A stretch of DNA of 64,000 nucleotides from a virus (Duplodnaviria; Heunggongvirae; Uroviricota; Caudoviricetes): the IMG/VR virus record IMGVR_UViG_3300044712_000851, positions 32,885 through 96,884 of that record; one strand, given 5' to 3'. A program made the position numbers and the translations under genes. Positions within the stretch are counted from its first letter, which is position 1. Every line of letters starts with the position of its first letter. A model generated the notes under the pieces. The model had not been told where the DNA came from, did no database searches, and saw only the letters and a list, made by a program, of their open reading frames with translations. Shown here in pieces: positions 2,853 through 42,059 of this stretch.

Positions 2853-3633
2853 CGTAATAACTCCGTCTGTGAGGGGTGAAGGTCTACCGTTGGTTCAAAG
2901 AGCTTTAAGACATCAAGACTTTCAAGATTTTGAATGGATTATAGTTGGAGGATGGAAAAATCTAGGTAGTTTTGCCACTCACCTACAAGGTGTTTCTAAT
3001 AATCCTAAATATCCCGCCGAGTATCCAATAATGGTTGATGAACCAAAAAAACTAAAGGGAGATGTTTGGTCTCTTAATAAGGCCTATAACGCTGGTTTAA
3101 GGGAAGCCAAGGGAGAATTGATAGTTAGTTGGCAAGACTATACTTTTGCCCGTCCTGATGCACTACAGGGCTTCTGGGAGCATTTTAAAGAAGAACCTAA
3201 CACTTTAGTATCTGGATTAGGTAATAAGTATGAAACTGACAGTTGGGATGTGATGATCTGGGAAGATCCCCGCGGGAAAGATACATTTTTAAGTTACTAC
3301 CCTACTGCTTTTAATGAGATTGAGTGGAACTTCTGTTCTGTTCCTAAACAGGCTCTTTATGATGTAGGGGGATTTATTGAAGACTTTGATCAGGGATATG
3401 GAATGGATGCCTACAATGTCAACGAAAGAATAGCCAGTCTGGGCAAGTATGACTTCAAAATAGATCAGAGTCTAAAAAGCTATTCCCTTCCGCATGGACG
3501 GGTAAAAGATTGGGAGGAAAAAAACTGGATACACGAAAATAGGTACGGAATCATGAAAGAAAAGATGATTAAAGAGGGTAAGTGGCCAATTGCTCCATAT
3601 TTGACAAACGTCAGACAAACTGATATAGTTTGA
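2824..3633 (+). CDS. glycosyltransferase family 2
   Basis: KISVITPSVRGEG N-terminus typical of GT2; ATG at 2824 in the same frame as the 2740 ORF. Confidence 0.6.
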   Translation: MKKNGNPKISVITPSVRGEGLPLVQRALRHQDFQDFEWIIVGGWKNLGSFATHLQGVSNNPKYPAEYPIMVDEPKKLKGDVWSLNKAYNAGLREAKGELIVSWQDYTFARPDALQGFWEHFKEEPNTLVSGLGNKYETDSWDVMIWEDPRGKDTFLSYYPTAFNEIEWNFCSVPKQALYDVGGFIEDFDQGYGMDAYNVNERIASLGKYDFKIDQSLKSYSLPHGRVKDWEEKNWIHENRYGIMKEKMIKEGKWPIAPYLTNVRQTDIV

Positions 3634-3875
3634 TCATGGTACACAAACACGCGACAATGCGTGACTTATTAAGAAATCCCTCAGGAACTCTTCCTAAAGA
3701 TGGAGAAGAGTTGGTCGTTTCAAAGAATGGAATGCCCTCTTACCACATAACCCCAATTAATTCTGTCAACTTTATGGCTTCCTCACTGTCCCCTAGTGGT
3801 GTTCTTCGAAATGAAACTTTAAATATGTCTAAACAACCTAGCGGGGAGGTGACTATTCATGAGCACAAAAAATAA
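3630..3875 (+). CDS. hypothetical protein
   Basis: ORF overlapping the upstream stop (translational coupling). Confidence 0.35.
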   Translation: MIMVHKHATMRDLLRNPSGTLPKDGEELVVSKNGMPSYHITPINSVNFMASSLSPSGVLRNETLNMSKQPSGEVTIHEHKK

Positions 3876-4518
3876 AAAGAATTTTATAGTTAGCTTTATT
3901 TTAGATAGGTCTGGATCAATGGAATCTTGTAAGTCTGCTGTTATATCAGGATTTAAAGAATATATCAACGGACTCAAAAAGTCTAAAGATGCTGTTAATA
4001 CACGCTTTTCTTTAACCACTTTTGATTCTGAGAGTATCGATCACCTATACACAAATACACCTATCAAAGAAGTCGAACCTCTTAGCAATAAGACTTTCAT
4101 TCCACGCGCAGGGACTCCGCTCTATGATGCAGTCGTAAACACAGTTGAATCCCTTGCTAAAGAAGTAACTGAAAAGCAACCAGTTTTAGTAGTCATTATG
4201 ACGGACGGAGAAGAGAACTCTTCTCACGAACACGATGCAGATTGTTTTAGGGATCTTGTTAAAAAACTTAAAAAGCAAGGAAACTGGACATTTACGTTTA
4301 TGGGTGCAAACCAAGACTCTTGGGCAAATGCTCAGAAGTGGGGATTTGATCAGGGAAATACAATGGACTTTGCATCAAGCGACGCTGGAACCAGAAGTGC
4401 ATTTAAAGGGTTAGCTGCCGCAAGTGTTAACTTTATGGCAATGGCAAACGATACCAATGTACTAAGAGCATCAAACTTTTTCGACTCCAGTAAGGGGGGT
4501 GAAAAAGATGTACATTAA
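3859..4518 (+). CDS. von Willebrand factor A (vWA) domain protein
   Basis: MIDAS metal-binding motif DRSGSM, plus GTPLYDA and MTDGEENSS. Confidence 0.7.
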   Translation: MSTKNKKNFIVSFILDRSGSMESCKSAVISGFKEYINGLKKSKDAVNTRFSLTTFDSESIDHLYTNTPIKEVEPLSNKTFIPRAGTPLYDAVVNTVESLAKEVTEKQPVLVVIMTDGEENSSHEHDADCFRDLVKKLKKQGNWTFTFMGANQDSWANAQKWGFDQGNTMDFASSDAGTRSAFKGLAAASVNFMAMANDTNVLRASNFFDSSKGGEKDVH

Positions 4519-4726
4519 TCATTTTCATACTCATAGCCACAACTGTTGTCCAATGGGTGGTGAACACTGTAAACACTATTGTTCAGGTTGTGGTGTGAGT
4601 TATTGTTGTAAGTGTGGTAGGGAATGGGGCGGATATGTTTCTGTGTATCCTACTTGGAGTTATTCTGTGCTGGGTACTGGTTCAAATGTGTCTGCAAATA
4701 GATCTTCATGTAGTCACGCTCATTAA
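4499..4726 (+). CDS. Cys/His-rich small protein
   Basis: 12 Cys in 75 aa (CCPMGGEHCKHYCSGCGVSYCCKCG). Confidence 0.4.
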   Translation: MKKMYINHFHTHSHNCCPMGGEHCKHYCSGCGVSYCCKCGREWGGYVSVYPTWSYSVLGTGSNVSANRSSCSHAH

Positions 4727-4862
4727 TTCACGGTTTGGCTTGACGTCAATGCCGTAAGTGTGTTTAGATATTAATACATAACCACGAGGCCTCCGAGCTA
4801 GTGGGAAGAAAAAGTCATAGATTATTCTGTGGCTTTTTTTGTGTTTTAAGGAGGTGATATAT
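4727..4862 (+). promoter_or_regulatory. conserved late leader, copy A: TTGACG promoter-like box, GCCACGAGGC...GCTAGTGG hairpin, T7 tract, GGAGGTG
   Basis: About 80 nt similar to 12150–12260 (ATACATA[A/G]CCACGAGGC...GCTAGTGG...CTTTTTTTGT.TTTAA.GGA). Confidence 0.5.
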
Positions 4863-5369
4863 ATGGCAGACGCACAAAGATTTGAAAACTTATCACAATC
4901 AGCTAGAGAATCATTGGTCAACTCATTAAGGAGTCAGGAAACTGATCCTAGTACTTACGTTGACGTAACGGGTGATACTATGATTGGAGCTTTAGCAGTT
5001 CCAACTATTGGTGTTACCAGCAACGCCTCTGTCAGTGGCAGTCTTACTGTGGGAGGGGCATTTGTAGGTTCTACTTTCTCTTTTTCAAGCAACTCAACAG
5101 GTTTGGGTGGTCTTGTTTTGGGATCAAATGTAACCTTAACCAACGCACTTGTAATTAAAAATACAGTCTTGGGTGGACCGACGACAGCTCCTATACAGTT
5201 AGTTGCCTCAACCGCTTCACAAGCCTTTTTTGACTTTCAGGGAGCAGTTATATCAACCGCATCACTCAATCTTGCAGCTAATCAAATGGCTGGAGTAATC
5301 AAAGTATGGATTAATGGAGTAGGTGGTCAGAATGTTGGATACCTTCCAATATTTAAAGGAGTTGTTTAA
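4863..5369 (+). CDS. virion structural protein, Ser/Thr/Gly/Val-rich
   Basis: ATG after AAGGAGGTG; low-complexity beta-rich composition; downstream of the late leader. Confidence 0.5.
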   Translation: MADAQRFENLSQSARESLVNSLRSQETDPSTYVDVTGDTMIGALAVPTIGVTSNASVSGSLTVGGAFVGSTFSFSSNSTGLGGLVLGSNVTLTNALVIKNTVLGGPTTAPIQLVASTASQAFFDFQGAVISTASLNLAANQMAGVIKVWINGVGGQNVGYLPIFKGVV

Positions 5370-12033: not shown

Positions 12034-12260
12034 TGGAAACAAGATAAGGCCCAGAGCTTTCCATAACCTACCCCTCAGGTTTTGGCTACCTTACTCTGGG
12101 TCTTGTCATATTTCTATTGGTTTGCCTTGACATCAGGGCAGACTTTATGTTTATATTTACTTATACATAGCCACGAGGCGTTATTGCTAGTGGCGACGAA
12201 GACTCATTGTTTCAATGGGTCTTTTTTTGTTTTAACGGAAAGAAGGTGAATTAATAATTT
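12034..12260 (+). promoter_or_regulatory. conserved late leader, copy B: long hairpin, TTGACA-N17-TTTATA, GCCACGAGGC...GCTAGTGG, terminator-like hairpin + T7, RBS
   Basis: Paralogous to 4727–4862; hairpin GACTCATTG-TTTC-AATGGGTC then TTTTTTTG about 30 nt before the ATG. Confidence 0.5.
12201..12229 (+). terminator. intrinsic terminator-like hairpin plus T-tract inside the leader (candidate attenuator)
   Basis: 9-bp stem (one mismatch), 4-nt loop, seven T residues. Confidence 0.45.
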
Positions 12261-13424
12261 ATGATTTTATCATCATCAAAAACTCAAGCTCCAATGTCTT
12301 CAGGTGGAATGTCTGTTCCAGCGGGGACTCCTGTTTATAGTGCTCCAATGTCAATTCCAGGGGCTTATAACACTATGGGAAATTATTACAATGCTCCCGT
12401 AGCCACACCTGCTCCAGCACCAACCCCTAAACCACAAGGAGGATCTGGTCCTACTCCAACAGCGGCAACAACCGCTCCAGCAGGATCTGGATTTGACATG
12501 AATGCTTGGAATGATGCTCTTAACACTTATTATTCTCCAGCTTACTCTAGATTGGATTCTCTTGCTCAACAGTATAGGGACCAAGAGCCTTTAGCAGAAC
12601 AGCAGGTTAATAATCAATATAACCAAGCGTTAATACCTATTGAAGACAACCTTAATACAGGAACGTCAAATATATCTCAACAGAGGCAGGATGTTTATCA
12701 AGGACAGCAATCAGCCATATCTCAGGCTAGACAACTCTACAACGAACTTATGCAACAAGGAATTGCAAAGTTTGGTGCAGGATCTTCAGCAGGACCAGCT
12801 TATGCTGCCATCCTTGGAAAACAAACTTCATCTAACATAGGTGGAGCAATGCAGACTGCTACAAACGCAAACAGCAAACTTGATTCAGAACTCAATAACT
12901 TAACAAAGTTTATAGGATCTCAGAAATCAAGCTTGGCAGAACAGAAGTTGACAGCTATTGGAAAGGTTCAACAAGATCTTAAAGATAAGTTGGCAGCTAT
13001 TGATTCTCAAAAAGGTCAGTTAGACCAGAGCAAGGCAGAACAACAGATGCAAGCTTTGATTGATGCACGAAACAGAGCCTATCAAATAGAGGATGCTTCA
13101 ACTGCATTCCAGAGACAGATAGATTTGTTCAACGCACAAACACAGGCATCTATTGCACAAAAGTACAGTGTTAACAATGGAATTAGTAGTGATGCTTTAT
13201 CACAATTCACTAAGTTAGCACCTATTTTGGGTATTCAGCCAGCAGCTCAAGTATTGGGAATAGACCTAAGTAAGGTTCAAGGACAATTAACTCCTTACGC
13301 AACTGGTACTTGGATCAATCTAGGAAACGGAACTTACTATAATAACCAAACAGGTGAATATAGTCAGACTCCTCCAGCTCAGTCAATTGATGCAATCTCG
13401 GGTATATTAACAGGGAATCGTTAA
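12261..13424 (+). CDS. Gln/Asn-rich coiled-coil virion protein
   Basis: RBS GAAGGTG; Pro/Ala/Thr-rich N-terminus then Q-rich helical region. Confidence 0.55.
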   Translation: MILSSSKTQAPMSSGGMSVPAGTPVYSAPMSIPGAYNTMGNYYNAPVATPAPAPTPKPQGGSGPTPTAATTAPAGSGFDMNAWNDALNTYYSPAYSRLDSLAQQYRDQEPLAEQQVNNQYNQALIPIEDNLNTGTSNISQQRQDVYQGQQSAISQARQLYNELMQQGIAKFGAGSSAGPAYAAILGKQTSSNIGGAMQTATNANSKLDSELNNLTKFIGSQKSSLAEQKLTAIGKVQQDLKDKLAAIDSQKGQLDQSKAEQQMQALIDARNRAYQIEDASTAFQRQIDLFNAQTQASIAQKYSVNNGISSDALSQFTKLAPILGIQPAAQVLGIDLSKVQGQLTPYATGTWINLGNGTYYNNQTGEYSQTPPAQSIDAISGILTGNR

Positions 13425-20508: not shown

Positions 20509-21147
20509 TCAGATCATTTCACGCACACTGAAGCGATTTCCGATGAAGTATCTCTTTTTTTCTTCGTTTAGGAATGATCCTACAGCAGTCCCCGCAACAC
20601 CAGCCACAGTTTTAATAAAACTAGCAGCACCTTGCATCTCACAAATGTCTACTGGATTCTTTGAGTCTTCTGGAACTTCGTAGTTCTCTGCCCATGATAT
20701 TTCGAAAGTCATTTTAGGAGAGAAACCACAATGTAAAAGGGAAAACACATCAGTTAGATTATTTTTTTCTAATTCGACCTTACCAATCTTTGTTTTGACA
20801 AACTCTACTCCGTTCCACAACTTTTGTATTAAAGCTCTAGACGCTTGATTGTCAAAACAATCTATTACTAAATTATAATCACCAAAAGTAGAGTGACCGC
20901 TAAACTGTTCATTTCTGGTCTTTATTTCTTTTCCAAACCACTGATAGATGTTATATTGAAGTGCATCGACCTTAAACTGACCTATTTGATTAGGCATGTA
21001 AAACTGGGTTCCAGCCTGAACGTTACGCTCTTCTATTTTATCAAAATCAAGCACAGTAATATCGACCTCATTTCTGAAGTCTGAAGCTAAGTTGGCGGTT
21101 AAGTTACTACCCAACGCCCCCGCACCAAGAATCAATACTCTTTTCAT
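20509..21147 (-). CDS. ThiF/MoeB/E1-like adenylyltransferase (E1-like, first copy)
   Basis: VLILGAGALGSNLTANLA Rossmann glycine loop, DFDKIEERNV. Confidence 0.55.
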   Translation of the reverse strand: MKRVLILGAGALGSNLTANLASDFRNEVDITVLDFDKIEERNVQAGTQFYMPNQIGQFKVDALQYNIYQWFGKEIKTRNEQFSGHSTFGDYNLVIDCFDNQASRALIQKLWNGVEFVKTKIGKVELEKNNLTDVFSLLHCGFSPKMTFEISWAENYEVPEDSKNPVDICEMQGAASFIKTVAGVAGTAVGSFLNEEKKRYFIGNRFSVREMI

Positions 21148-23704: not shown

Positions 23705-24415
23705 TTAAAATAATGGGTTGTTTGTCACAGTGTGACCATAGCTTCTTAAAATTTCTGATGCAACACTGGTTTGATATATACCACCATATCCCTCATATCC
23801 ATATTTCATTGCCCTGTCTATAATACCGTCTCCGTCAATTTCTTCCTCGTCTAGTAGATAAGGCAATGGATCTCTATCTATTAGAGAAAGAATGTCTTTC
23901 ATTTTTGCAATAGCCTTATCCGCCTCACTTTTGACGAATTCATGAGAGTGTTTGACAAAGGCATCGTTGGTGACAATACCTATACCCACCACAGGAATTC
24001 CTAGCCTGTTAGCAGAAATTACCTCAGGAGTCATACTCATTCCAACTACATCAGCTCCCAGCATTCTAAGGGCTTGTTTGTCGGCAAATGTTTCGTAGTG
24101 TGGACCTCTCATAAACACATGGATAGCTTCTTTTTTAATATACTTTCTGGCTTTTTCTGTAAGGTTTTTATCAAATGGTTGAGAGAGATCAATAAAACTA
24201 GGTCCGTTCCAAGTTGATTTGTAGAAGAGAGTTATAAGATCTGTAATTAATACAGCGTCACCAACGGTCAAGCGAGGGTTAAGAGATCCAACCGCGGAGA
24301 CAACAACTAATCTTTTTGCACGTTTAATATCTTCAACAATATCTATTTCTGAAGCTCCCTCATAAATGTGTTGTCTTTTAATTCCGTCTGTTTCAATTGT
24401 TCCTGAATAAATCAT
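23705..24415 (-). CDS. purine nucleoside phosphorylase/MTA phosphorylase family (PNP_UDP_1)
   Basis: GADVVGMSMTPEVISA...GIVTNDA closely matches the GADAVGMSTVPEVIVA...SLITNK of trimeric PNPs. Confidence 0.75.
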   Translation of the reverse strand: MIYSGTIETDGIKRQHIYEGASEIDIVEDIKRAKRLVVVSAVGSLNPRLTVGDAVLITDLITLFYKSTWNGPSFIDLSQPFDKNLTEKARKYIKKEAIHVFMRGPHYETFADKQALRMLGADVVGMSMTPEVISANRLGIPVVGIGIVTNDAFVKHSHEFVKSEADKAIAKMKDILSLIDRDPLPYLLDEEEIDGDGIIDRAMKYGYEGYGGIYQTSVASEILRSYGHTVTNNPLF

Positions 24416-24882
24416 AGTATATAAGATTTTTGTATTAATATATTTCTGTAATCAAACACCTCTGGTCCGTTAAGATCTTTGGTATCTATAAAGTTTTCGC
24501 CAACTTGTATTTTAGTAAATATTCTCTTGGCTTCGGGATCTAGCTCTTTTCTTTCAAGCCACTTGTCCTTACTTTCCCAATATCCCATAAAAATAGTTTC
24601 TTGGAAGTAATCGGTAAAGATCTCTGTAATCGTGCACATTCGTGCAGGGAAAGGATACATCCAAAGAGCTTGAGCCTTTAAAGTAGAGATATCCTCACCA
24701 CTAAGTTGCGTCATTCCAGGTGGGTGAGTGTGGGCAAGGAGAAAAGCTGATCCAGGTGATTTCTTGTGAAGTAAGTAAAGTAAATCTTGCGGAAAGACAA
24801 CCATTCCAGGATTGCCCTCGATTATGTTAATCAAATTTCCATCCCGATCCACAATAGCTCCGTACTCTGATATATACTTCAT
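24412..24882 (-). CDS. JAB/MPN (JAMM) metalloprotease domain protein (second JAB)
   Basis: HTHPPGMTQLSGED equals HxHx7Sx2D. Confidence 0.6.
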   Translation of the reverse strand: MKYISEYGAIVDRDGNLINIIEGNPGMVVFPQDLLYLLHKKSPGSAFLLAHTHPPGMTQLSGEDISTLKAQALWMYPFPARMCTITEIFTDYFQETIFMGYWESKDKWLERKELDPEAKRIFTKIQVGENFIDTKDLNGPEVFDYRNILIQKSYIL

Positions 24883-24899
24883 AATATGATACTAACGTC

Positions 24900-25106
24900 T
24901 TATTCTTCCTTTGTCAAGGCTCTTTTCTTCAAGGAATTTAATCCAGGCACAAAATAGTGAGAAAGAACTCTTAGACAGATTCTGACTAGAGACAACAAAT
25001 ATTTTCTTGGAATACTTGTAGTCGTTCCGTTTTCGTTTGTTATTTCCAATCTCTGAGCTTCTTCCATCCACTCAAAGTTGGCATATTTAAGGTTTGATTT
25101 TATCAT
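24900..25106 (-). CDS. hypothetical protein
   Basis: ORF. Confidence 0.3.
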   Translation of the reverse strand: MIKSNLKYANFEWMEEAQRLEITNENGTTTSIPRKYLLSLVRICLRVLSHYFVPGLNSLKKRALTKEE

Positions 25107-25377
25107 CTTTTTTCACCGCCTCTTCTTTTTTCTCGATTTTAGGAGCAATATACCATGTCCCTCGTGTATCTTTTTTGATTTCATTCAAAAGTTTGACACA
25201 GGCTTCTAATTCCTCAAGAGAAGAAAGGTTGATTGTTCCCCCTAATTTAGATTCAATAGATGCTGAAACAATCAATTTTCCACTTGAATTGGATTTATAT
25301 TTACCCACCAAACCAAAATCTGAATCTTGAATAAAATGTGTTGCTTCAATTAAGCTTGTCTTTCTATAGTTTGTCAT
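25087..25377 (-). CDS. hypothetical protein
   Basis: ORF. Confidence 0.35.
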   Translation of the reverse strand: MTNYRKTSLIEATHFIQDSDFGLVGKYKSNSSGKLIVSASIESKLGGTINLSSLEELEACVKLLNEIKKDTRGTWYIAPKIEKKEEAVKKDDKIKP

Positions 25378-25391
25378 ATAAAAGTCACCCC

Positions 25392-25649
25392 CTATTTACA
25401 AGAAAACTGGGGCTCTACCCCGTGTCCGCTTATATATTCGTATTGAAAATTTAACACACCGTTTGGACAGACTTTGAAAGCCGCCTCGGTGTCTCTTTCG
25501 TGGTCGTTCTTTTTGCAGACCTCTATTTCTTTCATCTCTTTATAAATTGTTGGAGCTTTAGATCTACCCAAGAAAAAAGCACCAACTATGATAGCTATTA
25601 ATAATATAAAAGTTGAAATCTTGTGTGCGTTTCGATGTTCGTATGTCAT
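25392..25649 (-). CDS. small membrane protein
   Basis: One transmembrane helix (ILLIAIIVGAFFLG). Confidence 0.4.
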   Translation of the reverse strand: MTYEHRNAHKISTFILLIAIIVGAFFLGRSKAPTIYKEMKEIEVCKKNDHERDTEAAFKVCPNGVLNFQYEYISGHGVEPQFSCK

Positions 25650-25815
25650 ATAAATAATTTGATCAAACCATAAATAAAGAGTCCAAACAACAGTAACGGA
25701 ATTATGGATACAATTACACTAGCAACCACTAAGGCAACAACCACAACAAGCTTGGTCATTAATACCAATAAAAGTATAAAAGGCAACATAAATAATATTC
25801 CAAAAATTTTACTTT

Positions 25816-26670
25816 TCATGATCGTGTTATATAAAGTCCTCCATGCCCTACTCCGCCCTCTTCATAATAAGTCTGGGCAAGTTTAATAGCACTAGATAAA
25901 CTGTGTTCTTTGTCATAACCACTAGCACAGAACCCCAACTCAAGAATTTGCTGGTTGTCTTTTATAGTAGAGGTTATTTGTTGACCGTTTATCTTCCAGA
26001 TAACAACATAGTTTGACCCCTTTTTACTGAATCTTATTAACTGTCCACCTGCATCTTCAATAGTTTTTTGTAGATTACCAGCAAATGTGGCTCTGAACTC
26101 CTGTATTCGCTTCTGACGCTCCTCTTCTGCCAACTTAAGTGTCTCTAGCTCTTTAGCGGCACGGAACGCGTCACGTTGCAAACTGTGCAGTAGAAACACA
26201 TATCTAATCTCTGGTGTCACTCCCCGAATGCCCTCTAGGGGTTTTTCGTTTTCGTAAGCCTCTTTTACTTGATTTATAACCGTTCTAGACGCCTTTGGGT
26301 CAGAACCACAAGAATAATAGTGACTGTCATCCCACTGAATAAAGCGGACAATATCCCAAGGGTTTTCATTCATAAAAGAGACATGGATTGTTTCTCCAAA
26401 ACCTCGTCTAAAAAACATATCAAAATTGAAAGGAACTACATCCTCTCCCATTGGGTAGCCAACAAAAGTTTTCTGTCCTTCCTGTGCTTTGAGTATTTCT
26501 AAAGGAGTTGCTTTTCTCAAAATCTGCCACCTATTTCCCAGTTTCAAACGATACCAGCCATCTTCTTCATTGGTCTCTATTAAACGACCCAACGTACGAC
26601 AAACTCCATTCAAAACTGGAGCAGTTACTTCTTTTTCTTGTGTAAATCTTTTAAGGTTTATTTCTGCCAT
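25816..26670 (-). CDS. hypothetical protein, last gene of the Ubl operon
   Basis: 284-aa ORF, same strand, 160 nt after the JAB gene. Confidence 0.5.
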   Translation of the reverse strand: MAEINLKRFTQEKEVTAPVLNGVCRTLGRLIETNEEDGWYRLKLGNRWQILRKATPLEILKAQEGQKTFVGYPMGEDVVPFNFDMFFRRGFGETIHVSFMNENPWDIVRFIQWDDSHYYSCGSDPKASRTVINQVKEAYENEKPLEGIRGVTPEIRYVFLLHSLQRDAFRAAKELETLKLAEEERQKRIQEFRATFAGNLQKTIEDAGGQLIRFSKKGSNYVVIWKINGQQITSTIKDNQQILELGFCASGYDKEHSLSSAIKLAQTYYEEGGVGHGGLYITRS

Positions 26671-26833
26671 TTTTGTTAATTTTTTCTATAACTTCATTTA
26701 GTTTATCCCTTAATAATAATAGCTTATCTTCTTCAGAATTTCCAGATGCTAAAACAAAAGAACCTTTGGAATTTAATGTCCACCAATCCCAACCAGTTAG
26801 TTCATCTACATCAATTTTTGCTATTTTTGTCAT
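26651..26833 (-). CDS. hypothetical small protein
   Basis: Overlaps both neighbours. Confidence 0.3.
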   Translation of the reverse strand: MTKIAKIDVDELTGWDWWTLNSKGSFVLASGNSEEDKLLLLRDKLNEVIEKINKNGRNKP

Positions 26834-27504
26834 TTGTCTGGTTCAATATCTATCGGAATAGGCTGATCCTCTGTCGGTGGCCAATGATATCCTCCTTTTT
26901 TCCCAATTGGCAAGGAAAGAACCGACGGTTGATAGGGCGGTGGAAATATATCCGTTGGGTCTGGTTCTATTGCTTCTTTTTTTTTACCAGCAGGTCCCTC
27001 AACCCGCACTTTTTCTACTATGTCTTTAAAAACTTCATCTTCTATTTGGGCATCATCATACAATATTTCGTAAGGGATATTCTCGACAGTAATACGAAGT
27101 GGCTTAAAGACATCACACCTAAATACCATATCACCCGCGTGATTAGTGACGAGACTTAGTGACCAGTTATCTTTTTCATTTTCGGTATCTGAATCCTCTA
27201 TGGTAGCTTCATCTGTTGTAGACCAAAAAGCTTCCATGGTGTTGTGAGAATGCCACCAAAGTCTCCACATGGAAATATCCTCATTTTGTTCCATAAGCTC
27301 GTTGTAAAATTTAGACTGAGACTTGTAATCCAAAATAACATTTCCACCAGAAACAACCTGTTCAAAAATCCTCAGATCCTCAATTGTAAATATCTCACCC
27401 TTTTCATCTCTTTTAATTTTAGCCATACCACCAATCTCATGCTTTGTGGCAAGAGTATAGGCTCTAAGTTTTTGATATATTTTAACTGGGATCAGTATTT
27501 TCAT
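26830..27504 (-). CDS. JAB/MPN (JAMM) deubiquitinase-like metalloprotease
   Basis: WWHSHNTMEAFWSTTDE equals HxHx7Sx2D; conserved Glu upstream. Confidence 0.65.
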   Translation of the reverse strand: MKILIPVKIYQKLRAYTLATKHEIGGMAKIKRDEKGEIFTIEDLRIFEQVVSGGNVILDYKSQSKFYNELMEQNEDISMWRLWWHSHNTMEAFWSTTDEATIEDSDTENEKDNWSLSLVTNHAGDMVFRCDVFKPLRITVENIPYEILYDDAQIEDEVFKDIVEKVRVEGPAGKKKEAIEPDPTDIFPPPYQPSVLSLPIGKKGGYHWPPTEDQPIPIDIEPDK

Positions 27505-28993
27505 TGTTTTGGCTTTGAATTAATTCCGTTAATCTTTCCAAATTTCTTTCGGTCAAAACAGAATTTTCCGCAGGGATTGCTGACGCTTCCATTTGAGTTT
27601 CTTCTTGAACTTCAGATGCTTCGGGTCTGTCTAATGCCCACTCACCAGTGTTTGGAGAATATCTCAATCCATTTGCATCTAACCGTGATGGTTCTAGAAC
27701 ATCTCGTACATGGCTTCCCGCGGTATTACCACCTCCACCTCCATGTAAACCTCCACTAGCTCCGCCACCACCCATTGGCATTTCCTCTATCATCATTTCC
27801 CCAGCTACTTCACTATTTACTCTCGGTCGGTCACCATCAAAGTCTCTACGGTTGCAAGGAATTCTAGATATTTCGGTGCGTCCATTCATGTCAAAACTGC
27901 AAAATAATTTATAATCTCCACCTTCGTCATTTAACTCGATTCTTTGTATAGGTCTTCCCTCACCAATTTGCTGGATAAGTCTGACATAATAACTAACCGC
28001 AAAAGGCAACATTCCAGTTCCCCTTAAAAATTCAAAAGTATCCATATCGTTTCTTACTTCGTTGATTCGAGCTATGGTTCTACTCCAAGAAGCTATATAG
28101 GAATTAAGAGGGCTTACATAGGTGGCTGTGGAATAGACCATTTGTTCTGTTGCTTGTACAGATCTTTGCATTGCATCTAGAATAGATCGGTGGTCAAAAG
28201 TTGCTGAAACACCGTCAGATTCTTTAACTTTTTGTTCTTGCTCATATCTCTCAAAAGAGTAGTTAGGCTCTCTTGCCTTAGCTTTTGAACAAAACATACC
28301 CCACTTGGTATAACCAGCACCATCATGTGGGGAGCGGAGCAAATCTATAACATCCACAACTATTTCATAGAGATCTTGTTCTCTGTATTCTTGGTCTAGA
28401 TCCGCTTCAAGTTCTGAACCATAACAAAATCGACTATTTGAAATATTTGGATGATCATAACTACCATGATATCTATCTAGATTAACAGCACGAATTCCAG
28501 CGTGAATATCCCCAGCCTTAAGATCAATCATTATCTGAAAACGACCAGCATCTTTATCTTTTCTCCAGTCACTCCTAAGCGATTTAGGAAGTTTAATTGG
28601 CATGGTTGTAATGAAGATTCTTTTCTTTTTATCTACAGAGAATGCGGTTACGGCTTTTTGTCCGTCTATTTCGTAGTTTTTAATTTTAGTGATAACCCGC
28701 CTAAAACTGTCCAATACTTCTTGTTTGTTTTTGTTAATTATTTCTTTGTATTTTTTCTCTAGGCTACCACGAGTAACAGAAATAGTTTTTTGTCTTTTAG
28801 TGAGGTCTTCTAATCCTGAAGCAACCTGTTCCCATTCTTTTTTGTTTTTATCCAGTTTTTCTTTAATAACTTTCTTCTTGAGTTTGAGGAAACTAACTAA
28901 GGCTTCAGCAGCCATATCTTCCACAGAGAGGGTAGTCCCTTCGCGGGGACTGGCAGGAGAAACACTTGCATCGATTCTAGTTGAATTGTCCAT
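27482..28993 (-). CDS. E2-like (UBC-fold) conjugating-enzyme candidate with extra N- and C-terminal regions
   Basis: YDHPNISNSRFCYG (HPN then Cys 9 residues later) and a downstream IVVDVIDLLRSP resembling the E2 LL..PN helix. Confidence 0.4.
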   Translation of the reverse strand: MDNSTRIDASVSPASPREGTTLSVEDMAAEALVSFLKLKKKVIKEKLDKNKKEWEQVASGLEDLTKRQKTISVTRGSLEKKYKEIINKNKQEVLDSFRRVITKIKNYEIDGQKAVTAFSVDKKKRIFITTMPIKLPKSLRSDWRKDKDAGRFQIMIDLKAGDIHAGIRAVNLDRYHGSYDHPNISNSRFCYGSELEADLDQEYREQDLYEIVVDVIDLLRSPHDGAGYTKWGMFCSKAKAREPNYSFERYEQEQKVKESDGVSATFDHRSILDAMQRSVQATEQMVYSTATYVSPLNSYIASWSRTIARINEVRNDMDTFEFLRGTGMLPFAVSYYVRLIQQIGEGRPIQRIELNDEGGDYKLFCSFDMNGRTEISRIPCNRRDFDGDRPRVNSEVAGEMMIEEMPMGGGGASGGLHGGGGGNTAGSHVRDVLEPSRLDANGLRYSPNTGEWALDRPEASEVQEETQMEASAIPAENSVLTERNLERLTELIQSQNNENTDPS

Positions 28994-29050
28994 ATATCAC
29001 TTAAATACTAAATCTGAGGGGGTTAGCTAAAGCCCCCTCAGACACTAACC

Positions 29051-29287
29051 TTAACGCCCACCCTCAACATTTTTAGTGAGCAAAACTCTATCACCGTCTT
29101 CTAGCTCGTAATCCATTTCTGCATCCTCGCCGTTGACAGTTATTTCCTCGGTGGATTTTTTATTAACCCCAGCTGCTTCCAAGGCGTCCTGAACTGTGTG
29201 TCTGCCGTTGAGTGCGACCTCTTCGACTTTAGTACCAGTCCTCGCAACTTTAACTAGAATTCCTTCGTCTTTTCTTTTTCTTCCCAT
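29051..29287 (-). CDS. ubiquitin-like beta-grasp protein (ThiS/MoaD-like) ending ...VEGG-R
   Basis: ITVNGEDAEMDYELEDGDRVLLTKNVEGGR follows the ThiS/MoaD pattern, with a one-residue extension after Gly-Gly. Confidence 0.6.
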   Translation of the reverse strand: MGRKRKDEGILVKVARTGTKVEEVALNGRHTVQDALEAAGVNKKSTEEITVNGEDAEMDYELEDGDRVLLTKNVEGGR

Positions 29288-29305
29288 AAATACTCACCCC
29301 CATTC

Positions 29306-37173: not shown

Positions 37174-37255
37174 TGCTCCCTACAAGACTCGAACTTGTAC
37201 GCTTATTGGGCAACAGTTTTTGAAACTGCCTTGTCTACCATTTCAACAAGAGAGC
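37174..37255 (-). tRNA. tRNA-Leu(CAA), class II
   Basis: 3-bp D-stem, anticodon loop TTCAAAA, 13-nt variable arm, T-arm ACAAG-TTCGAGT-CTTGT. Confidence 0.6.
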
Positions 37256-37384
37256 TAGTCAAGACGGGGTAATTTTACTCACGTCTGTAAATTTCTTAGT
37301 CCCCGTCAAGGAGACTATAATCCTATATATTTTACCTATCAAGTGTAGATTTCGTGCTACAACTCTTTTAAAGATAGGTTTATG

Positions 37385-37466
37385 TGCACCTAACAGGACT
37401 CGAACCTGTACGTCTTACGGCAAGGGCTCTTAAGGCCCTCGTGTCTGCCAGTTCCACCATAAGTGC
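37385..37466 (-). tRNA. tRNA-Leu(TAA), class II
   Basis: Anticodon arm AGGGC-CTTAAGA-GCCCT, long variable arm, T-arm ACAGG-TTCGAGT-CCTGT. Confidence 0.6.
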
Positions 37467-37772
37467 TTACTTCTTTTTCTTAGATCTCTTATTGGCATTC
37501 TTCATCTGCCTATAAGCATCTTTGCTCAGAACATTATTTGCATACTTTTTAGCCATTTGATTTATCTTCCATTTATATATTTACGAACAACAACAATTTG
37601 CTCTTTGCCATCTACTATTTTGATTTTTGCTACATAGTGTTCCATTTCTGGATTGGCTTTAAGTTTTTGCTGTTCTTCTTCTAACTTTTGATATATTTCA
37701 TTTGGTTGTGGTCTTTCGCCTGACACTTTGACCACCTCCAACTGTAATCATTTTTTTCATAAATAGAATATG

Positions 37773-37854
37773 TTTAAAATTGTGCACTCTGTAGGATTTG
37801 AACCTACGACCTTCTCTATGTTAGAGAGTTGCTCTACCGCTGAGCTAAGAGAGC
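37773..37854 (-). tRNA. tRNA with anticodon loop CTAACAT (AAC anticodon, possibly Val); uncertain
   Basis: D-arm GCTC-AGCGGTA-GAGC, T-arm GTAGG-TTCAAAT-CCTAC; A at position 34 is unusual. Confidence 0.45.
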
Positions 37855-37858
37855 TTAG

Positions 37859-37939
37859 TGCACTCGCCGAGACTTGAACTCGGACGCCTTTCGACATATG
37901 TTCCTTAGACATACGCGTATACCATTCCGCCACGGGTGC
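37859..37939 (-). tRNA. class II tRNA with anticodon loop CTAAGGA (AAG, possibly Leu); uncertain
   Basis: 3-bp D-stem, 13-nt variable arm, T-arm CCGAG-TTCAAGT-CTCGG. Confidence 0.45.
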
Positions 37940-38045
37940 TTATAGGTAAATGCGTTCGGGAATATCGGACTCTATGCACCTTGGCTTATTAGTTTCCAAC
38001 TGGTTAGTAAATTACCAAGACGTACCTCCCCATATTTACCCTATG

Positions 38046-38116
38046 TGCTCTCTGAGGGAATCGGACCCCCGCGATCTCGATGTAAACGAGTTATTCTGCC
38101 ATTAAATTAAGTGAGC
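38046..38116 (-). tRNA. tRNA-Val(TAC)
   Basis: Anticodon loop TTTACAT, T-arm GGGGG-TCCGATT-CCCTC. Confidence 0.55.
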
Positions 38117-38197
38117 ATACGGAGATGTAAGAAATAGGGGGTCATCAAGGCCCGATAAAAACCAGACCTCTCGCCCAGACTCTACACATCCGACGTG

Positions 38198-38269
38198 TTC
38201 GCCATCAAGGAATCGAACCTTGTGCCAATTCTTTATAAGAGAATGGTGCAGCCAATACACCTATGGCGA
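38198..38269 (-). tRNA. tRNA-Ile(TAT)-like
   Basis: Acceptor TCGCCAT/ATGGCGA 7/7, anticodon arm ATTCT-CTTATAA-AGAAT, T-arm CAAGG-TTCGATT-CCTTG. Confidence 0.5.
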
Positions 38270-38397
38270 ATATTCTAGATAAGCTGCTTCGAAACCAACC
38301 TACGATGTCGAGGTATCAGCCAAATTCGTTCCAGAGGTTGGGATTAAGACGTCATATGATTCCCCAACATAACATCGTGTTTATGATTTTACCTAGG

Positions 38398-38480
38398 TGC
38401 ACCTCACAGGATTCGAACCTGCACGCTTTTTAGTGCGCTGGTTTCTAAAACCAGTATGTCTACCATTTCATCAAAGGTGC
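38398..38480 (-). tRNA. tRNA-Leu(TAG), class II
   Basis: Anticodon arm CTGGT-TTTAGAA-ACCAG, 16-nt variable arm, T-arm CAGG-TTCGAAT-CCTG. Confidence 0.6.
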
Positions 38481-38619
38481 TCGACGAGATAGGATGTTTT
38501 TTGTGGTGATCCTATCAACCACAACAGGTGCTTATTATATTAAAGTGCAGAAAGGCAGCGGAAGTGCACTGTGGCCTGTTTTTATTTTTCCGTGGTTATC
38601 TAGCTCACCCACGTCCTAG

Positions 38620-38702
38620 CGGAGGATATAGGATTCGGACCTACATGCCTTATTCAGACGATTGTTTTCAAGACAATTGCTCCACCGTTGAGCGAATCCT
38701 CC
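38620..38702 (-). tRNA. tRNA-Ser(TGA), class II
   Basis: Acceptor GGAGGAT 7/7, D-arm GCTC-AACGGTG-GAGC, anticodon loop CTTGAAA, long variable arm. Confidence 0.6.
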
Positions 38703-39150
38703 ATGTCTTACCTATTATAATCGCTCTAATAGTACTTTTGTCAACTCCATATTTGTCTCCTAGCTTCTTGTAAGAATAAGTCCCCGTTGAGTAGAACATT
38801 CTTATATCTTCAACTTCTTTGGCAGTTAACTTATTGCGATTAGTATTTTCACCTTGAGCATAGTTGTCTCTTCCCCGAGACTGCATATCCTCAATATTTT
38901 CTTCGTATGTTCCTAGCCTTAGATGGGCAGGATTGCAACATATTCGATTGTCACACGAATGCAAAACCAACATATCATCGGGAACTGGAATTTTGTTTAT
39001 TATATTAAAAATAAATCTATGTGCATCAACTACTAATCCGTTTGGTCCCTTCCAAGCTCCATATCCAGATCGTCTCACTGCACCAGTCCACTCCCAACAA
39101 CCGTTTGGGGCATTCTTATTTACTTTGTCCCAAAAGTTTTTTATCTTCAT
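38668..39150 (-). CDS. HNH homing-type endonuclease
   Basis: GCWEWTG...HRFIF...VLHSCDNRICCNPAHL is HNH_3-like; 3' end overlaps tRNA-Ser. Confidence 0.6.
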   Translation of the reverse strand: MKIKNFWDKVNKNAPNGCWEWTGAVRRSGYGAWKGPNGLVVDAHRFIFNIINKIPVPDDMLVLHSCDNRICCNPAHLRLGTYEENIEDMQSRGRDNYAQGENTNRNKLTAKEVEDIRMFYSTGTYSYKKLGDKYGVDKSTIRAIIIGKTWRIRSTVEQLS

Positions 39151-39158
39151 TCTGTTCT

Positions 39159-39251
39159 GCGGAGAAAGCTGGATTCGAACCAGCGAGATAATTAGTCTAG
39201 CGATTTAGCAAACCGCTTGGGATGGCCACTCCCTATTTCTCCAGGATCAGT
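39159..39251 (-). tRNA. tRNA-Ser(GCT), class II
   Basis: Acceptor GGAGAAA 7/7, D-arm GGGA-GTGGCCA-TCCC, anticodon loop TTGCTAA, 15-nt variable arm. Confidence 0.55.
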
Positions 39252-39523
39252 TACTCATAAGCCAGATTCTGTTAGGTACTTTATGTTTCAATTTTCCATT
39301 GTGCAATCTATCTAAGCCTTGACACTCATCCGAGCAGGATTTGTCGTGGACACCACGGCTTGAGTACGCAAGTTGCAGCACTAGAGATTACTCGTTTCAG
39401 CCTAACTTAATAGGATCGTTTCTGTAGCTCTAATCGGTCTTCACAGACCCCCATTTAATTGGGTAGTTTGCTCTGCTGTCTGGACTTTCCTCAAAAATGT
39501 GGGTGCGTCCTCCGTAGTTGTTT

Positions 39524-39560
39524 AGACTCTCTCGCATTATGGCGGAGTCGAACCGCCCCC
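39524..39560 (-). tRNA. tRNA-like 3' module (T-arm GGCGG-TTCGACT-CCGCC plus acceptor); no 5' partner found
   Basis: No complementary 5' acceptor within 110 nt; next to the 270-nt non-coding gap at 39252–39523. Confidence 0.3.
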
Positions 39561-39631
39561 AACCTTAAGTCGCCTGAGCGTCAGGATTCACTGCCTTTTA
39601 CAGGCCGTCATTTCTGTAGCACATCTGTAAC

Positions 39632-39706
39632 TGGTAGAGCATCTTGGACTCGGACCAAGGGCCTTCTCGATATCAGCGAGATGTTTTACCTCTCAACTAA
39701 TGCTCT
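39632..39706 (-). tRNA. tRNA-Ile(GAT)-like
   Basis: Acceptor AGAGCAT/ATGCTCT 7/7, anticodon arm TCTCG-CTGATAT-CGAGA, T-arm CTTGG-TCCGAGT-CCAAG, CCA encoded; D-arm atypical. Confidence 0.45.
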
Positions 39707-39782
39707 ATTTAAACTGTAGGTAAGGATTTTTCTTACCTTTAGACTATATATGATTATATACGATTGTATACGATTATTTATG

Positions 39783-39857
39783 AGACCCGAGACAGATTTG
39801 AACTGTCGAATTGCGGGTTTGCAAGCCGCCGTGTTAGCCAGGCTTCACCATCGGGTC
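39783..39857 (-). tRNA. tRNA-Cys(GCA)-like
   Basis: Acceptor GACCCGA 7/7, anticodon region CTTGCAAAC, T-arm GACAG-TTCAAAT-CTGTC. Confidence 0.45.
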
Positions 39858-40376
39858 ATAATTTAATAACTTCTCTGCCAACTCTTTATCCTTAAACCAA
39901 AAAGTTGTTCCTTGTGAATTTGGAAATCGAACTTCTGTGTAATCATTAGGCTTCACAATCCTCTCCCAATGATACATGTCGTGTCCTTGATTGGTATCGT
40001 GGGCAACTATAATGTCGGTTTTACCGAACATCAAATTGATGATCTCTGGTCTACGATGTATTCCAGGGTCAACAAATGCCATGTCAAATTTCTTTCCTTT
40101 AATAAATTTCTTTATATAAGATTCAAGTTCTTTGTTCCACTCATCCTCGCATTCAAACAAAACTGGTTTCCAATTCTTATAATCTTTATAATCTTCTTTG
40201 CTCTTCTGAAACCAATCGGTTTCGGTCTTATAATGTAAAAGCTCTATGGATGTAACATCTCCACAGTTGTCAAGCAAAAACTTAGTCCCCTCGCCGAGAC
40301 CAAACTCAATAATCTTATCGATTTTTTTGAGTGCAAACAATTTTGTAAAGTGTTCTTGCCAATCAAGATATCCCAT
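39834..40376 (-). CDS. SAM-dependent methyltransferase-like protein
   Basis: IIEFGLGEGTKFLL glycine-rich motif I; DMAFVDPG. Confidence 0.4.
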   Translation of the reverse strand: MGYLDWQEHFTKLFALKKIDKIIEFGLGEGTKFLLDNCGDVTSIELLHYKTETDWFQKSKEDYKDYKNWKPVLFECEDEWNKELESYIKKFIKGKKFDMAFVDPGIHRRPEIINLMFGKTDIIVAHDTNQGHDMYHWERIVKPNDYTEVRFPNSQGTTFWFKDKELAEKLLNYDPMVKPG

Positions 40377-40384
40377 ATTATAAG

Positions 40385-40456
40385 TGCCCTTAGGAAGAAT
40401 TGAACTTCCATCACATCTTTAGAAGAGACGTGCTCGGTCCGTTGAGCTATAAGGGC
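40385..40456 (-). tRNA. tRNA-Arg(TCT)
   Basis: Acceptor GCCCTTA 7/7, anticodon loop CTTCTAA, T-arm GGAAG-TTCAATT-CTTCC. Confidence 0.6.
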
Positions 40457-40501
40457 TAAACGCTAATTCAGTTTATCAACAATATCATTAACAAAGTGAA
40501 T

Positions 40502-40586
40502 TGGTGTCCTAGCTAAGAATCGAACTTAGATCGGATCTTTAGGAAAGACCAGTTCTATCCGTTGAACTATTAGGACTTAGACTAAC
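40502..40586 (-). tRNA. tRNA-Arg(CCT)
   Basis: Anticodon loop TTCCTAA, T-arm CTAAG-TTCGATT-CTTAG, CCA encoded. Confidence 0.55.
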
Positions 40587-40725
40587 CTGTATATCTGCTG
40601 GCTGATCTTCTAACTCAGCCTCAGTTAAACCAAATGCTAAAGCTTGTTTTCCAGCATCATATTCACCTATCGGTTGAGGTGCTGGTTCTTCTGTAAAAAC
40701 TGGTGCTTGCATAAATCTTTCCATG

Positions 40726-40798
40726 TGCCCCCAGTAAGAGTCGAACTTACAACCCCATCTTTCGCAAAGACGTGCTCCTCCAATCAAGCTGTGAGGGC
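40726..40798 (-). tRNA. tRNA-Arg(GCG)-like
   Basis: Anticodon loop TTGCGAA, T-arm GTAAG-TTCGACT-CTTAC. Confidence 0.45.
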
Positions 40799-40919
40799 TT
40801 AGTTTGCGATGTCAATGATGGCAGAAACTAATAGAAATATAGCCCAGTTATTAAGTGGACTAAAAACTATTGCTGGTGTGCCAGACCAAAGCCACGCGAT
40901 AAGCCAAATGACTAACATG

Positions 40920-40991
40920 TGCATCTAGAATGAATTGAACATTCATAGCTGGTTTCGAAGACCAGGGCTCTATCCATTAAGCTATAGATGC
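40920..40991 (-). tRNA. tRNA-Arg(TCG)
   Basis: Acceptor GCATCTA 7/7, anticodon arm CTGGT-CTTCGAA-ACCAG, T-arm GAATG-TTCAATT-CATTC. Confidence 0.6.
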
Positions 40992-41702: not shown

Positions 41703-41708
41703 TTTGTG

Positions 41709-41779
41709 AGCGGGTAACGGGAATCGGACCCGTTGCTATACCTTGGCAAGGTATCGTTGAACCAATCAACTATACCCGC
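41709..41779 (-). tRNA. tRNA-Gly(GCC)
   Basis: Acceptor GCGGGTA 7/7, anticodon arm ATACC-TTGCCAA-GGTAT, T-arm ACGGG-TCCGATT-CCCGT. Confidence 0.65.
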
Positions 41780-41794
41780 AGATTTGGTGAGCCC

Positions 41795-41870
41795 AAGTGG
41801 ATTCGAACCACTAACCTATTCCTTAAGAGGGAAGTGCTCAAACCGTTGAGCTATGGGCCCTCAGTCACCA
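41795..41870 (-). tRNA. tRNA-Lys(CTT)
   Basis: Anticodon loop CTCTTAA, T-arm AGTGG-TTCGAAT-CCACT, CCA encoded. Confidence 0.55.
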
Positions 41871-42051
41871 AAGTCTTAAAGATACTGTTAAACAAATGAA
41901 ACAGCCTGGTCGAAGTGGTAGATAAATTTGGATAAGTAACGGGTATTAGCCCCTCGCTTTTCATATTCTGCCAATCATCAATTATGTAGAGTAAGACTTC
42001 TATTTCGTCTAATGTTAGCTCTAATCTAGCTGATTTGCTTTGTTCATGCAT
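41851..42051 (-). CDS. hypothetical small protein
   Basis: 66-aa ORF between tRNAs. Confidence 0.3.
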   Translation of the reverse strand: MHEQSKSARLELTLDEIEVLLYIIDDWQNMKSEGLIPVTYPNLSTTSTRLFHLFNSIFKTLVTEGP

Positions 42052-42059
42052 CTTTAATG

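Follow-up and report, generated by a model that had tools for sequence, protein, structure and literature searches.

A promoter-hairpin-terminator leader repeated before structural genes of an uncultured phage and its relatives, and its possible role in antitermination

Two structural genes of an uncultured phage (Caudoviricetes), which start at positions 4863 and 12261 of the 64-kb stretch of IMG/VR record IMGVR_UViG_3300044712_000851 analysed here (the window), are each preceded by the same composite leader: a predicted promoter, a small imperfect RNA hairpin (H1), an intrinsic terminator and a ribosome-binding site, in that order. The leader is conserved in related phages, H1 covaries as an RNA structure, and transcription of the genes has to cross the terminator. 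These leaders represent an RNA family of an uncultured phage clade that has not previously been described. As judged from the sequence, they may consist of a constitutive promoter gated by the leader terminator, with the adjacent H1 as a bypass signal that would bind a candidate factor and act locally; this is the reading preferred here, if tentatively.

Anatomy of the two leaders

The shared leader that an earlier note on this DNA had described before the two genes, with its TTGAC(G/A) box, ATACATA segment, hairpin and run of seven T residues, was found to be present as described. In both copies the order is TTGAC(G/A), 18 nt, a weak TG-extended -10 element, ATACATA(A/G), H1 of 23-25 nt, a gap of 6-9 nt, a stem-loop with T7, a ribosome-binding site and ATG. 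The T-run had been placed about 25-30 nt before the ATG; for copy B this was not correct, since the run lies 33-39 nt before its start codon, and the layout was otherwise as stated.

Copy A, which like copy B lies on the + strand, begins with the -35 box TTGACG (4740-4745), followed after 18 nt by the weak TG-extended -10 element (TGtTTAGAT, 4761-4769). The conserved start segment ATACATAA (4774-4781) would form a short single-stranded 5' end, and the predicted transcription start, at approximately 4776-4777, falls within it. H1 (CCAC-GAGGC-CTCCGA-GCTA-GTGG, 4782-4804), which was identified from folding and covariation, is made up of the outer stem P1 (CCAC/GUGG), a G.A mismatch, an A-U and a G-C pair, a bulged G, a C-G pair and a hexaloop. 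The intrinsic terminator AGTCATAG/CTGTGGCT (4807-4840) has its stem at 4813-4834 and T7 at 4834-4840; an upstream A-tract is able to pair with the U-tract, which gives 15 pairs with this A:U extension as opposed to eight core pairs, and the fold has an energy of -15.8 kcal/mol (z = -7.0). The ribosome-binding site GGAGG (4850-4854) is followed by the ATG at 4863 of a 168-residue structural (fibre-like) gene (4863-5369).

Copy B comprises the -35 box TTGACA (12127-12132), the weak TG-extended -10 element (TGtTTATAT, 12148-12156, with the hexamer TTATAT at 12151-12156), the conserved start segment ATACATAG (12163-12170) and H1 (GCCAC-GAGGC-GUUAUU-GCUA-GUGGC, 12170-12194), which again was identified from folding and covariation. 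Its terminator, GACTCATTG/CAATGGGTC (12198-12228; stem 12201-12221, T7 at 12222-12228), has nine core pairs and an energy of -12.9 kcal/mol (z = -4.5). The ribosome-binding site AAGGTGA (12243-12249) precedes the ATG at 12261 of a 387-residue gene (12261-13424).

The two copies stand out clearly from the rest of the window. The 17-mer ATACATARCCACGAGGC occurs exactly twice in the 64 kb with three mismatches permitted, where 0.17 occurrences were expected, and two or more were found in none of 100 shuffled sequences. An H1 covariance model, run on the window with its filters off, returned two sites only (39.7 and 36.9 bits; the next best scored 14 bits), and a terminator scan independently picked up both stem-loops with their T-runs. 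Further copies, for which the earlier note had proposed a search, were sought in the window and the 5 kb upstream of it (L003); the two sites were recovered and the window held no others. As a whole, leaders A and B fold into two hairpins and do so far better than shuffled sequence (z = -4.2 and -5.1), and both possess the stable stem-loop and U-tract that define an intrinsic terminator.

The -35 boxes of the window copies match the consensus at five to six of six positions and are strongly conserved. At the -10 place, relatives have TATAGT, TATAAT, TAGTCT or TGtTTTAAT. The spacer from -35 to -10 is poorly conserved between copies A and B, and a scan for consensus promoters listed neither copy. 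In both copies the -35 box lies within an imperfect palindrome (4737-4753 and 12124-12139) whose flanks are swapped, being GGC-TTGACGTCAA-tGCC in A and GCC-TTGACATCAG-GGC in B; this palindromic region was not found in the relatives.

Two further sequence features accompany the copies. In copy A, the CCUCC of the H1 loop (4790-4794) is complementary to the GGAGG of the ribosome-binding site (4850-4854) and is paired in the minimum-energy fold of the full leader. Such pairing was ruled out as a general mechanism, because the loop is not conserved in the relatives or even in copy B. Between the upstream stop codon and promoter B there is a long imperfect inverted repeat on the + strand (12046-12104; AAGGCCCAGAG ... 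CTCTGGGTCTT, 37 nt apart), which may serve the upstream unit as a processing site or weak terminator.

Distribution of the leader among related phages

Relatives were reached through homologs of the 168-residue protein among metagenomic contigs (designated by L numbers). The same architecture was found 5' of the orthologs of this gene in L004, L005, L008, L010, L013, L018, L020 and L023, that is, in every contig that has an intergenic region there. Copy B, too, is conserved in position: orthologs of the 387-residue gene in L023 (48% identity) and L013 (32%) have such a leader, and in L023 the terminator stem is kept by a two-sided change from A-U to U-G. An extra leader copy in L020 precedes a block of 203-, 511- and 396-residue genes, which we take to be the capsid module.

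An alignment of orthologs of the 644-residue tail protein added 28 more IMG/VR contigs (39-58% identity). Scans of IMG/VR with the single 168-, 387- and 644-residue proteins gave one distant locus (L002) or nothing, a scan with the alignment of the 168-residue family (A2) gave nothing, and a metagenome scan gave three loci. The exact pattern CCACGAGGC-N-GCTAGTGG had one match in IMG/VR (L001), located in a coding region of an unrelated contig, and was discarded as chance.

The contigs of the relatives were then covered by an architecture script that required a promoter box, two hairpins and a T-run. Most of them contained two to five units per 10-18 kb; there were 54 matches on the gene strand and six on the other, all six of the latter being long coding-like stretches. 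The more divergent hairpin classes came from this script and are missed by the covariance model of the window-type leaders (class I). Terminator stems of the relatives differ in sequence while their pairing and a T6-T9 run are kept, and L004, L005 and L008 have tandem terminators. The gene that follows the unit varies, being a fibre-like gene in some relatives and an adaptor gene in L033, L035 and L036. Both window copies and about 40 units of the relatives have TTGAC[AT] 55-130 nt before the terminator, a hairpin 0-11 nt from the terminator stem and an open reading frame that starts less than 60 nt downstream. The duplication is not peculiar to this genome; the leader is the standard start of late transcription units across the phage clade.

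H1 as a conserved RNA structure

The class I alignment consisted of eight distinct leaders of the window type, in all of which the AUWACAWA start segment is kept. The outer stem of H1 varies in sequence yet pairs in each form (CCAC/GUGG, CCUCA/UGAGG, GUCCA/UGGAC, UUCAGA/UCUGGA, CUUCCU/AGGAAG and CAGG/CCUG). Within it lies a conserved core, 5'-GAG(G)N...N'(C)UA-3', in which a G.A mismatch is followed by an A-U pair, a G-C pair, a bulged G and a covarying last pair (C-G, A-U or U-A). The hexaloop is variable (CUCCGA, GUUAUU, UUACAU, UUGUAU and CGACGU).

Pairing was present in 90.3% of the cells of the H1 alignment, compared to 64.7% in shuffles, none of 500 of which reached the observed value, and 32-42% with slid partners. 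Two-sided changes were seen in seven of the nine pairs. The U-G pairs assign H1 to the + strand transcript, since on the opposite strand they would read as A.C mismatches.

In more distant relatives the hairpin keeps its shape but has other cores. In one group P1 is followed by an asymmetric internal loop and then by a pentaloop enclosed between RGCG and CGCU; in a second group a conserved AGCAA/AGCAC loop sits on a 4-bp stem that covaries. Since these distant-class hairpins were chosen by pairing, they were not counted as an independent statistical test. A search of the window with Rfam 15 returned only tRNAs and a transfer-messenger RNA (tmRNA), to which the E-value mode added only weak terminator-like matches far below gathering scores, and there were no matches in 11 related contigs.

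Order and spacing of promoter, H1 and terminator

The order of promoter and terminator was determined in 33 related contigs (430 kb of non-redundant sequence), which contain 73 terminator-like sites on the + (gene) strand. A TTGAC[AT] box was found 55-130 nt upstream of 44 of the 73 sites, compared to 4.8% of random positions, and upstream of none of the 11 terminator-like sites on the - strand. Only two of the 73 had such a box within 70 nt downstream. The promoter-then-terminator arrangement is the reverse of the ordinary terminator-then-promoter order. Behind 40 of the 44 boxed terminators an open reading frame of at least 50 codons starts 0-59 nt past the T-run, and in eight cases it starts directly at the end of the run. 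A further promoter would not fit into the stretch from T-run to start codon, and transcription of the genes must consequently cross the terminator. Late control in lambda involves the promoter pR', the terminator tR' and the antiterminator Q; by analogy with this pR'-tR' logic, the arrangement is what would be expected if an always-active promoter gave transcripts that have to await a signal.

H1 and the terminator stem are separated by 0-11 nt in all 27 curated leaders, with a gap of 0 nt in 11 of them. In L010, L031a and L035b the outer H1 stem partly overlaps the base of the terminator and competes with it. A classical attenuator that relies on alternative folds was rejected, as the pairing potential is confined to L005 and is conserved neither in L004 nor in the window. 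In the L005 case (4373-4430) the outer H1 stem, GUCCA/UGGAC, is identical to the stem of the first tandem terminator, and a trp-leader-like 2:3 antiterminator fold is possible.

As a separate observation, the start codon abuts the T-run (TTTTTTTATG) without a Shine-Dalgarno sequence in L031, L034, L035, L036 and L033 (for example at L035 7276 and L031 10057). In those relatives the U-tract may double as the ribosome landing site, and starts of this kind suggest hosts that rely little on Shine-Dalgarno pairing.

Promoters of the non-structural genes

A family of consensus promoters (TTGACA-17-TAGTAT/TATAGT/TAATAT) was found on the - strand of the window before non-structural genes (24882-24917, 35414-35449, 47060-47096 and 50407-50446) and before the tRNA array, with one member on the + strand (TTGACA-17-TATAGT, 3601-3638). 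The last of these has its ATG 6 nt past the -10 element and heads the unit 3636-4726. At 24917, 35449, 47096, 50446 and 3601 the ATG lies 6-10 nt past the -10 element, and the corresponding mRNAs are for this reason probably leaderless; the structural operons, by contrast, have long leaders and GGAGG-type ribosome-binding sites. None of the consensus promoters of the window is accompanied by a hairpin and terminator, which makes the leader specific to the structural operons. The consensus promoters are presumed to be early.

The unit 3636-4726 has no terminator of its own. Promoter A starts 13 nt past its stop codon, and the first terminator that its transcripts meet is that of copy A. This terminator would therefore have two jobs, to end the upstream unit and to gate the transcripts of promoter A. 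Just before leader A, positions 4499-4726 (+) encode a 75-residue Cys/His-rich protein (HNCC...HCKHYCSGC...YCCKCG), whose only counterpart among the relatives, with 50% identity, occupies the corresponding place in L004.

A possible mechanism of terminator bypass

In the mechanism proposed, each copy would head a late (structural) transcription unit as its leader. Initiation at the TTGACA promoter would be by host RNA polymerase of the sigma-70 type, which would transcribe the imperfect 23-25 nt H1 within about 5 nt and, a few nucleotides further on, would encounter a canonical intrinsic terminator, the distance from there to the ribosome-binding site being 10-35 nt. Most transcripts from the promoter, together with read-through from the presumed early unit upstream, would by default stop there as RNAs of approximately 65 nt, and the structural genes would be expressed only on bypass of the terminator. 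H1 would be the cis signal for bypass and would most likely be bound by a phage-encoded factor or a phage-modified host factor; bound beside the terminator stem, this factor would keep the terminator hairpin from forming or acting. Alternatively, H1 might act directly on RNA polymerase. With one H1 per terminator, the action would be local.

The covariation of H1 as RNA, and the lack of conservation of the promoter spacer from one copy to the other, make it more likely that the signal is read on RNA than on DNA. Since no terminator is more than 11 nt from a hairpin of its own and every unit brings a promoter, local action is also more likely than processive action. The late timing, the role of H1 in bypass and the factor itself are predictions of this scheme. 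The earlier note had suggested that late expression might be controlled by antitermination, and this idea gained from the conserved layout before orthologous late genes, the covarying hairpin, the lack of room for a later promoter and the presence of consensus promoters without the leader. Its further suggestion, a phage antiterminator or RNA-binding factor, fared less well: no candidate was identified in the window, and a hairpin 0-11 nt from the terminator points to a local and not a lambda-type processive action.

Several observations weigh against the proposed mechanism. Both the start site and termination are deduced from the sequence. The -10 elements of the window copies are weak, matching the consensus at three of six positions and relying on the TG extension, and an activator could be needed additionally or instead. 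H1 is separated from the terminator stem by 9 nt in copy A and 6 nt in copy B, without overlap, so that a simple mutually exclusive fold is absent; forbidding the terminator costs 8.8 (A) and 8.5 (B) kcal/mol, about the energy of the terminator alone. The sequence of H1 differs among the copies of one genome (L026, L031 and L034), which weakens the case for a single sequence-specific binding protein. Finally, a Pfam search of all non-structural open reading frames of the window revealed no Q, N, NusG/LoaP-like, CAT/PRD, ANTAR, sigma or RNA polymerase domain, and a PHROGs search with ten small proteins from the presumed early region brought no relevant match.

Two proteins of the window were noted during the search for a factor. 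A basic 97-residue protein (57576-57869, -) has a helix-turn-helix and arginine-rich stretches (DDRRRKLSDDDRRQ; C-terminal YRRGRLV); its only matches were weak ones to resolvase-type helix-turn-helix domains, and its candidacy as a regulator is speculative. A DFDGD motif in a 503-residue protein (27482-28993, -) was rejected as a sign of a polymerase and attributed to chance, as the protein belongs to a ubiquitin-like/E1 cluster and carries no RNA polymerase signature.

If the mechanism holds, the timing of late genes in a widespread uncultured phage clade would be set after initiation, with host polymerase always initiating, and a small hairpin beside the leader terminator would decide whether the structural genes are made. 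A compact, repeated hairpin-terminator switch would then join the few known phage antitermination systems. The H1 motif offers a handle with which to seek the partner protein, the leader could provide a portable part of about 100 nt (promoter, gate and ribosome-binding site) for synthetic circuits, and annotators would gain a signature for the starts of late transcription units in metagenomic phages without cultured relatives. A bolder proposal, which we consider unlikely, is that H1 is a new minimal antiterminator RNA, a hairpin of about 25 nt that abuts the terminator and acts locally, either alone on RNA polymerase or with a candidate small phage protein. It would form, with a constitutive host-type promoter, a self-contained switchable unit that differs from N/nut, put, Q and RAT; with two to five or more such units per genome, uncultured phages of a large clade (about 40-100 kb) would time all their structural genes.

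Alternative explanations

The explanation that competes best, and one that is possible while falling well short of probable, is that the terminator is bypassed independently of H1. The terminator could be constitutively leaky, setting the level of expression and ending the upstream unit, or a general polymerase-binding phage antiterminator could, late in infection, override every intrinsic terminator; in either case H1 would serve to stabilise the 5' end of the late mRNAs or to insulate their folding. Its position about 5 nt from the predicted 5' end suits a protective stem-loop, and the shape of H1 is kept while its sequence varies inside some genomes. The separation of H1 from the terminator in the window copies is in keeping with this explanation, as is the failure of the Pfam and PHROGs scans of the window to return a specific RNA-binding candidate. 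General antiterminators of intrinsic terminators, such as Xp10 p7 and P23-45 gp39, are also documented (PMC4513864, PMC3351154). A stabiliser, however, would have no need of a conserved GAG...CUA core with its G.A mismatch and bulged G, nor of the AGCAA/AGCAC loop of another subgroup, and would not require the closeness of 0-11 nt to the terminator that was seen in 27 of 27 leaders. A leaky terminator behind a promoter, furthermore, amounts to a weaker promoter and leaves the near-universal promoter-then-terminator order (44 versus 2) unexplained.

It is improbable that the unit serves chiefly to encode an abundant small RNA of about 55-90 nt (5' tail, H1, terminator hairpin and U-tail) with a function in trans, such as that of a decoy or regulator, and that the downstream genes are expressed by read-through. 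A promoter of its own, a structured body and a Rho-independent terminator are the anatomy of bacterial small RNAs, and small RNAs derived from 5' untranslated regions (5'UTRs) by premature termination before structural genes were detected in 201phi2-1 and phiKZ (PMC11512511). Nevertheless, 40 of the 44 units lie 0-59 nt before the start of an open reading frame, and units were found only at the head of structural operons. With two to five copies per contig whose hairpins differ and whose single-stranded 5' segment is about 5 nt, a cis role fits better than a shared trans target.

The view that the units are mainly PeSL-like cassettes for recombination or module shuffling, without special regulatory logic, is compatible with the gated-promoter mechanism; as the main explanation it is highly improbable. 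Repeated composite regulatory elements do occur at module boundaries, the following gene differs among relatives (fibre-like as opposed to the adaptor in L033, L035 and L036), and PeSLs are documented (PMC4122927). Their stem-loop, however, is upstream of the promoter, whereas promoter, H1 and terminator follow in this order in 44 of 46 cases here, and shuffling accounts for the spread of the units but not for the kept order or the covariation of H1.

Least probable of all is a lambda Q-type mechanism, in which a DNA-binding protein loads on polymerase at a sigma-dependent promoter-proximal pause, with ATACATA as the pause element and H1 incidental: a sigma-70-type promoter with a close terminator before late genes is the pR'-tR' layout and the initially transcribed AUWACAWA is loosely -10-like, but the -35/-10 spacer, the would-be Q site, is poorly conserved between A and B, H1 covaries as RNA, processive modification would make a new promoter and hairpin for each terminator superfluous, and Pfam found no Q family in the window.

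Comparison with known systems

The unit resembles an antitermination leader, yet it fails to show the defining features of nut, put, qut, RAT, ANTAR or PeSL elements. With lambda pR'-tR'-Q it shares a predicted host-type promoter, an intrinsic terminator within about 100-200 nt and a position before late structural genes, as well as, if the proposed mechanism is correct, late expression by bypass and a short terminated leader RNA as the default product. Q reads promoter DNA and is processive over one long operon, whereas here a covarying RNA hairpin stands beside each terminator, the unit is repeated for each late transcription unit and no Q homolog was found in the window. The conserved Q-binding DNA element between -35 and -10 (qut) has no counterpart in the poorly conserved spacer of copies A and B.

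N-nut and put are alike in that a promoter-proximal structure in the nascent RNA is the cis signal for read-through, and the hairpin sequence of lambdoid nut sites is phage-specific, which is a likeness to H1. The boxB of lambda and P22 has a 5-bp stem and a GNRA-like pentaloop, is accompanied by boxA (CGCUCUUA) and acts processively at distant terminators. H1, by comparison, is a single hairpin of 23-33 nt with a G.A mismatch, a bulge and, in the class of the window copies, a variable loop, at 0-11 nt from the terminator. On direct reading no boxA was seen in the window leaders, the 5' segment being AUACAUAA, and for an arginine-rich protein of the N type Pfam gave no N family in the non-structural open reading frames of the window and no informative match for the 97-residue basic protein. 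HK022 put consists of two adjacent stem-loops of about 65-70 nt and acts processively without a phage protein, unlike the single 23-25 nt hairpin found here before the terminator.

The RAT elements of BglG, SacY and LicT, and the sites of other local antiterminators that bind hairpins, are similar in form: a hairpin of about 25-30 nt, imperfect and interrupted by internal loops, lies directly 5' of a leader terminator and acts locally, one per terminator. RAT, however, overlaps the 5' arm of the terminator to give exclusive folds, whereas the window copies have gaps of 6-9 nt and some relatives an overlap of a few nucleotides. The context differs as well, this being a phage late operon with no CAT/PRD protein among the non-structural open reading frames of the window. 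ANTAR leaders have tandem hexaloop hairpins with A1/G4, the second of which overlaps the terminator; here there is one hairpin with no conserved A1/G4, and no ANTAR domain was found in the window. LoaP, a NusG paralog, acts on leaders of polysaccharide and antibiotic operons in which a small conserved hairpin is followed by intrinsic terminators, read-through depending on this specialised factor. The small conserved hairpin before a terminator is a point of likeness; LoaP is, on the other hand, processive, the two kinds of leader are not similar in sequence, and the window yielded no NGN/KOW protein.

PeSLs are also composite cassettes of a sigma-70 promoter and a stem-loop, many per genome, at module boundaries. 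In T4-type phages, however, the stem-loop lies upstream of the cassette promoter (PMC4122927), giving a terminator-then-promoter order at early genes, while here the terminator is 3' of the promoter and the unit heads structural operons. In jumbo phages, premature termination just past the start site and before structural genes was seen experimentally (PMC11512511), which speaks for the proposed mechanism. These phiKZ-like 5'UTR small RNAs resemble the present leaders in that termination is directly past the start site before structural genes and in a secondary structure conserved among relatives (PMC11512511); they differ in being made by a phage RNA polymerase and in their unrelated sequences, as opposed to the predicted host sigma-70-type promoters and the several units per genome found here.

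Genomic setting and further observations

The window represents 64 kb of a phage genome of about 97 kb, of which about a third (approximately 33 kb) lies outside it; the same 168-residue protein is also encoded on a 96.8-kb Logan contig. The structural genes are on the + strand at about 4.8 to 19.9 kb of the window, and replication, accessory and other non-structural genes are mostly on the - strand. A megablast search with 10 kb of the window gave no match among GenBank phages, and with the 644-residue protein tblastn found only remote cultured relatives (21-31% identity over part of the protein). A scan of reference genomes gave no locus and hence no clue to a prophage or host.

The - strand carries 36 tRNA genes and a tmRNA gene (36750-37067) in one array (34240-44220), which is headed by a consensus promoter at about 44256. 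Rfam tRNA-like matches that ARAGORN did not call were found on the same strand at 34247-34313, 34564-34684 (121 nt) and 34697-34752 (partial). Beside them, in the region 33250-35000 (-), a 27-nt repeat (TGCTTGTA..CCTGCGAGACA) occurs four times (33329, 34311, 34611 and 34940). The uncalled stretches of this region may represent either decayed copies or tRNA genes interrupted by insertions or introns.

A 66-residue protein (879-1079, +) matches the Acb2/Tad1 hairpin domain (E = 8e-13) and is a candidate sponge of cyclic-nucleotide immune signals. On the - strand, a cluster at 20509-21147 and 24412-30336 encodes two ThiF/E1-like proteins, a small ubiquitin-like protein (29051-29287; Ub-Mut7C/ThiS match) and a JAB/MPN-like protein with an HTHPPG motif, which together look like a phage-encoded ubiquitin-like conjugation or deconjugation set. 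Von Willebrand A domains are present in three separate proteins (3859-4518, 30336-31364 and 31584-33188); in the 534-residue one, the domain is C-terminal and is preceded by a long unassigned N-terminal part.

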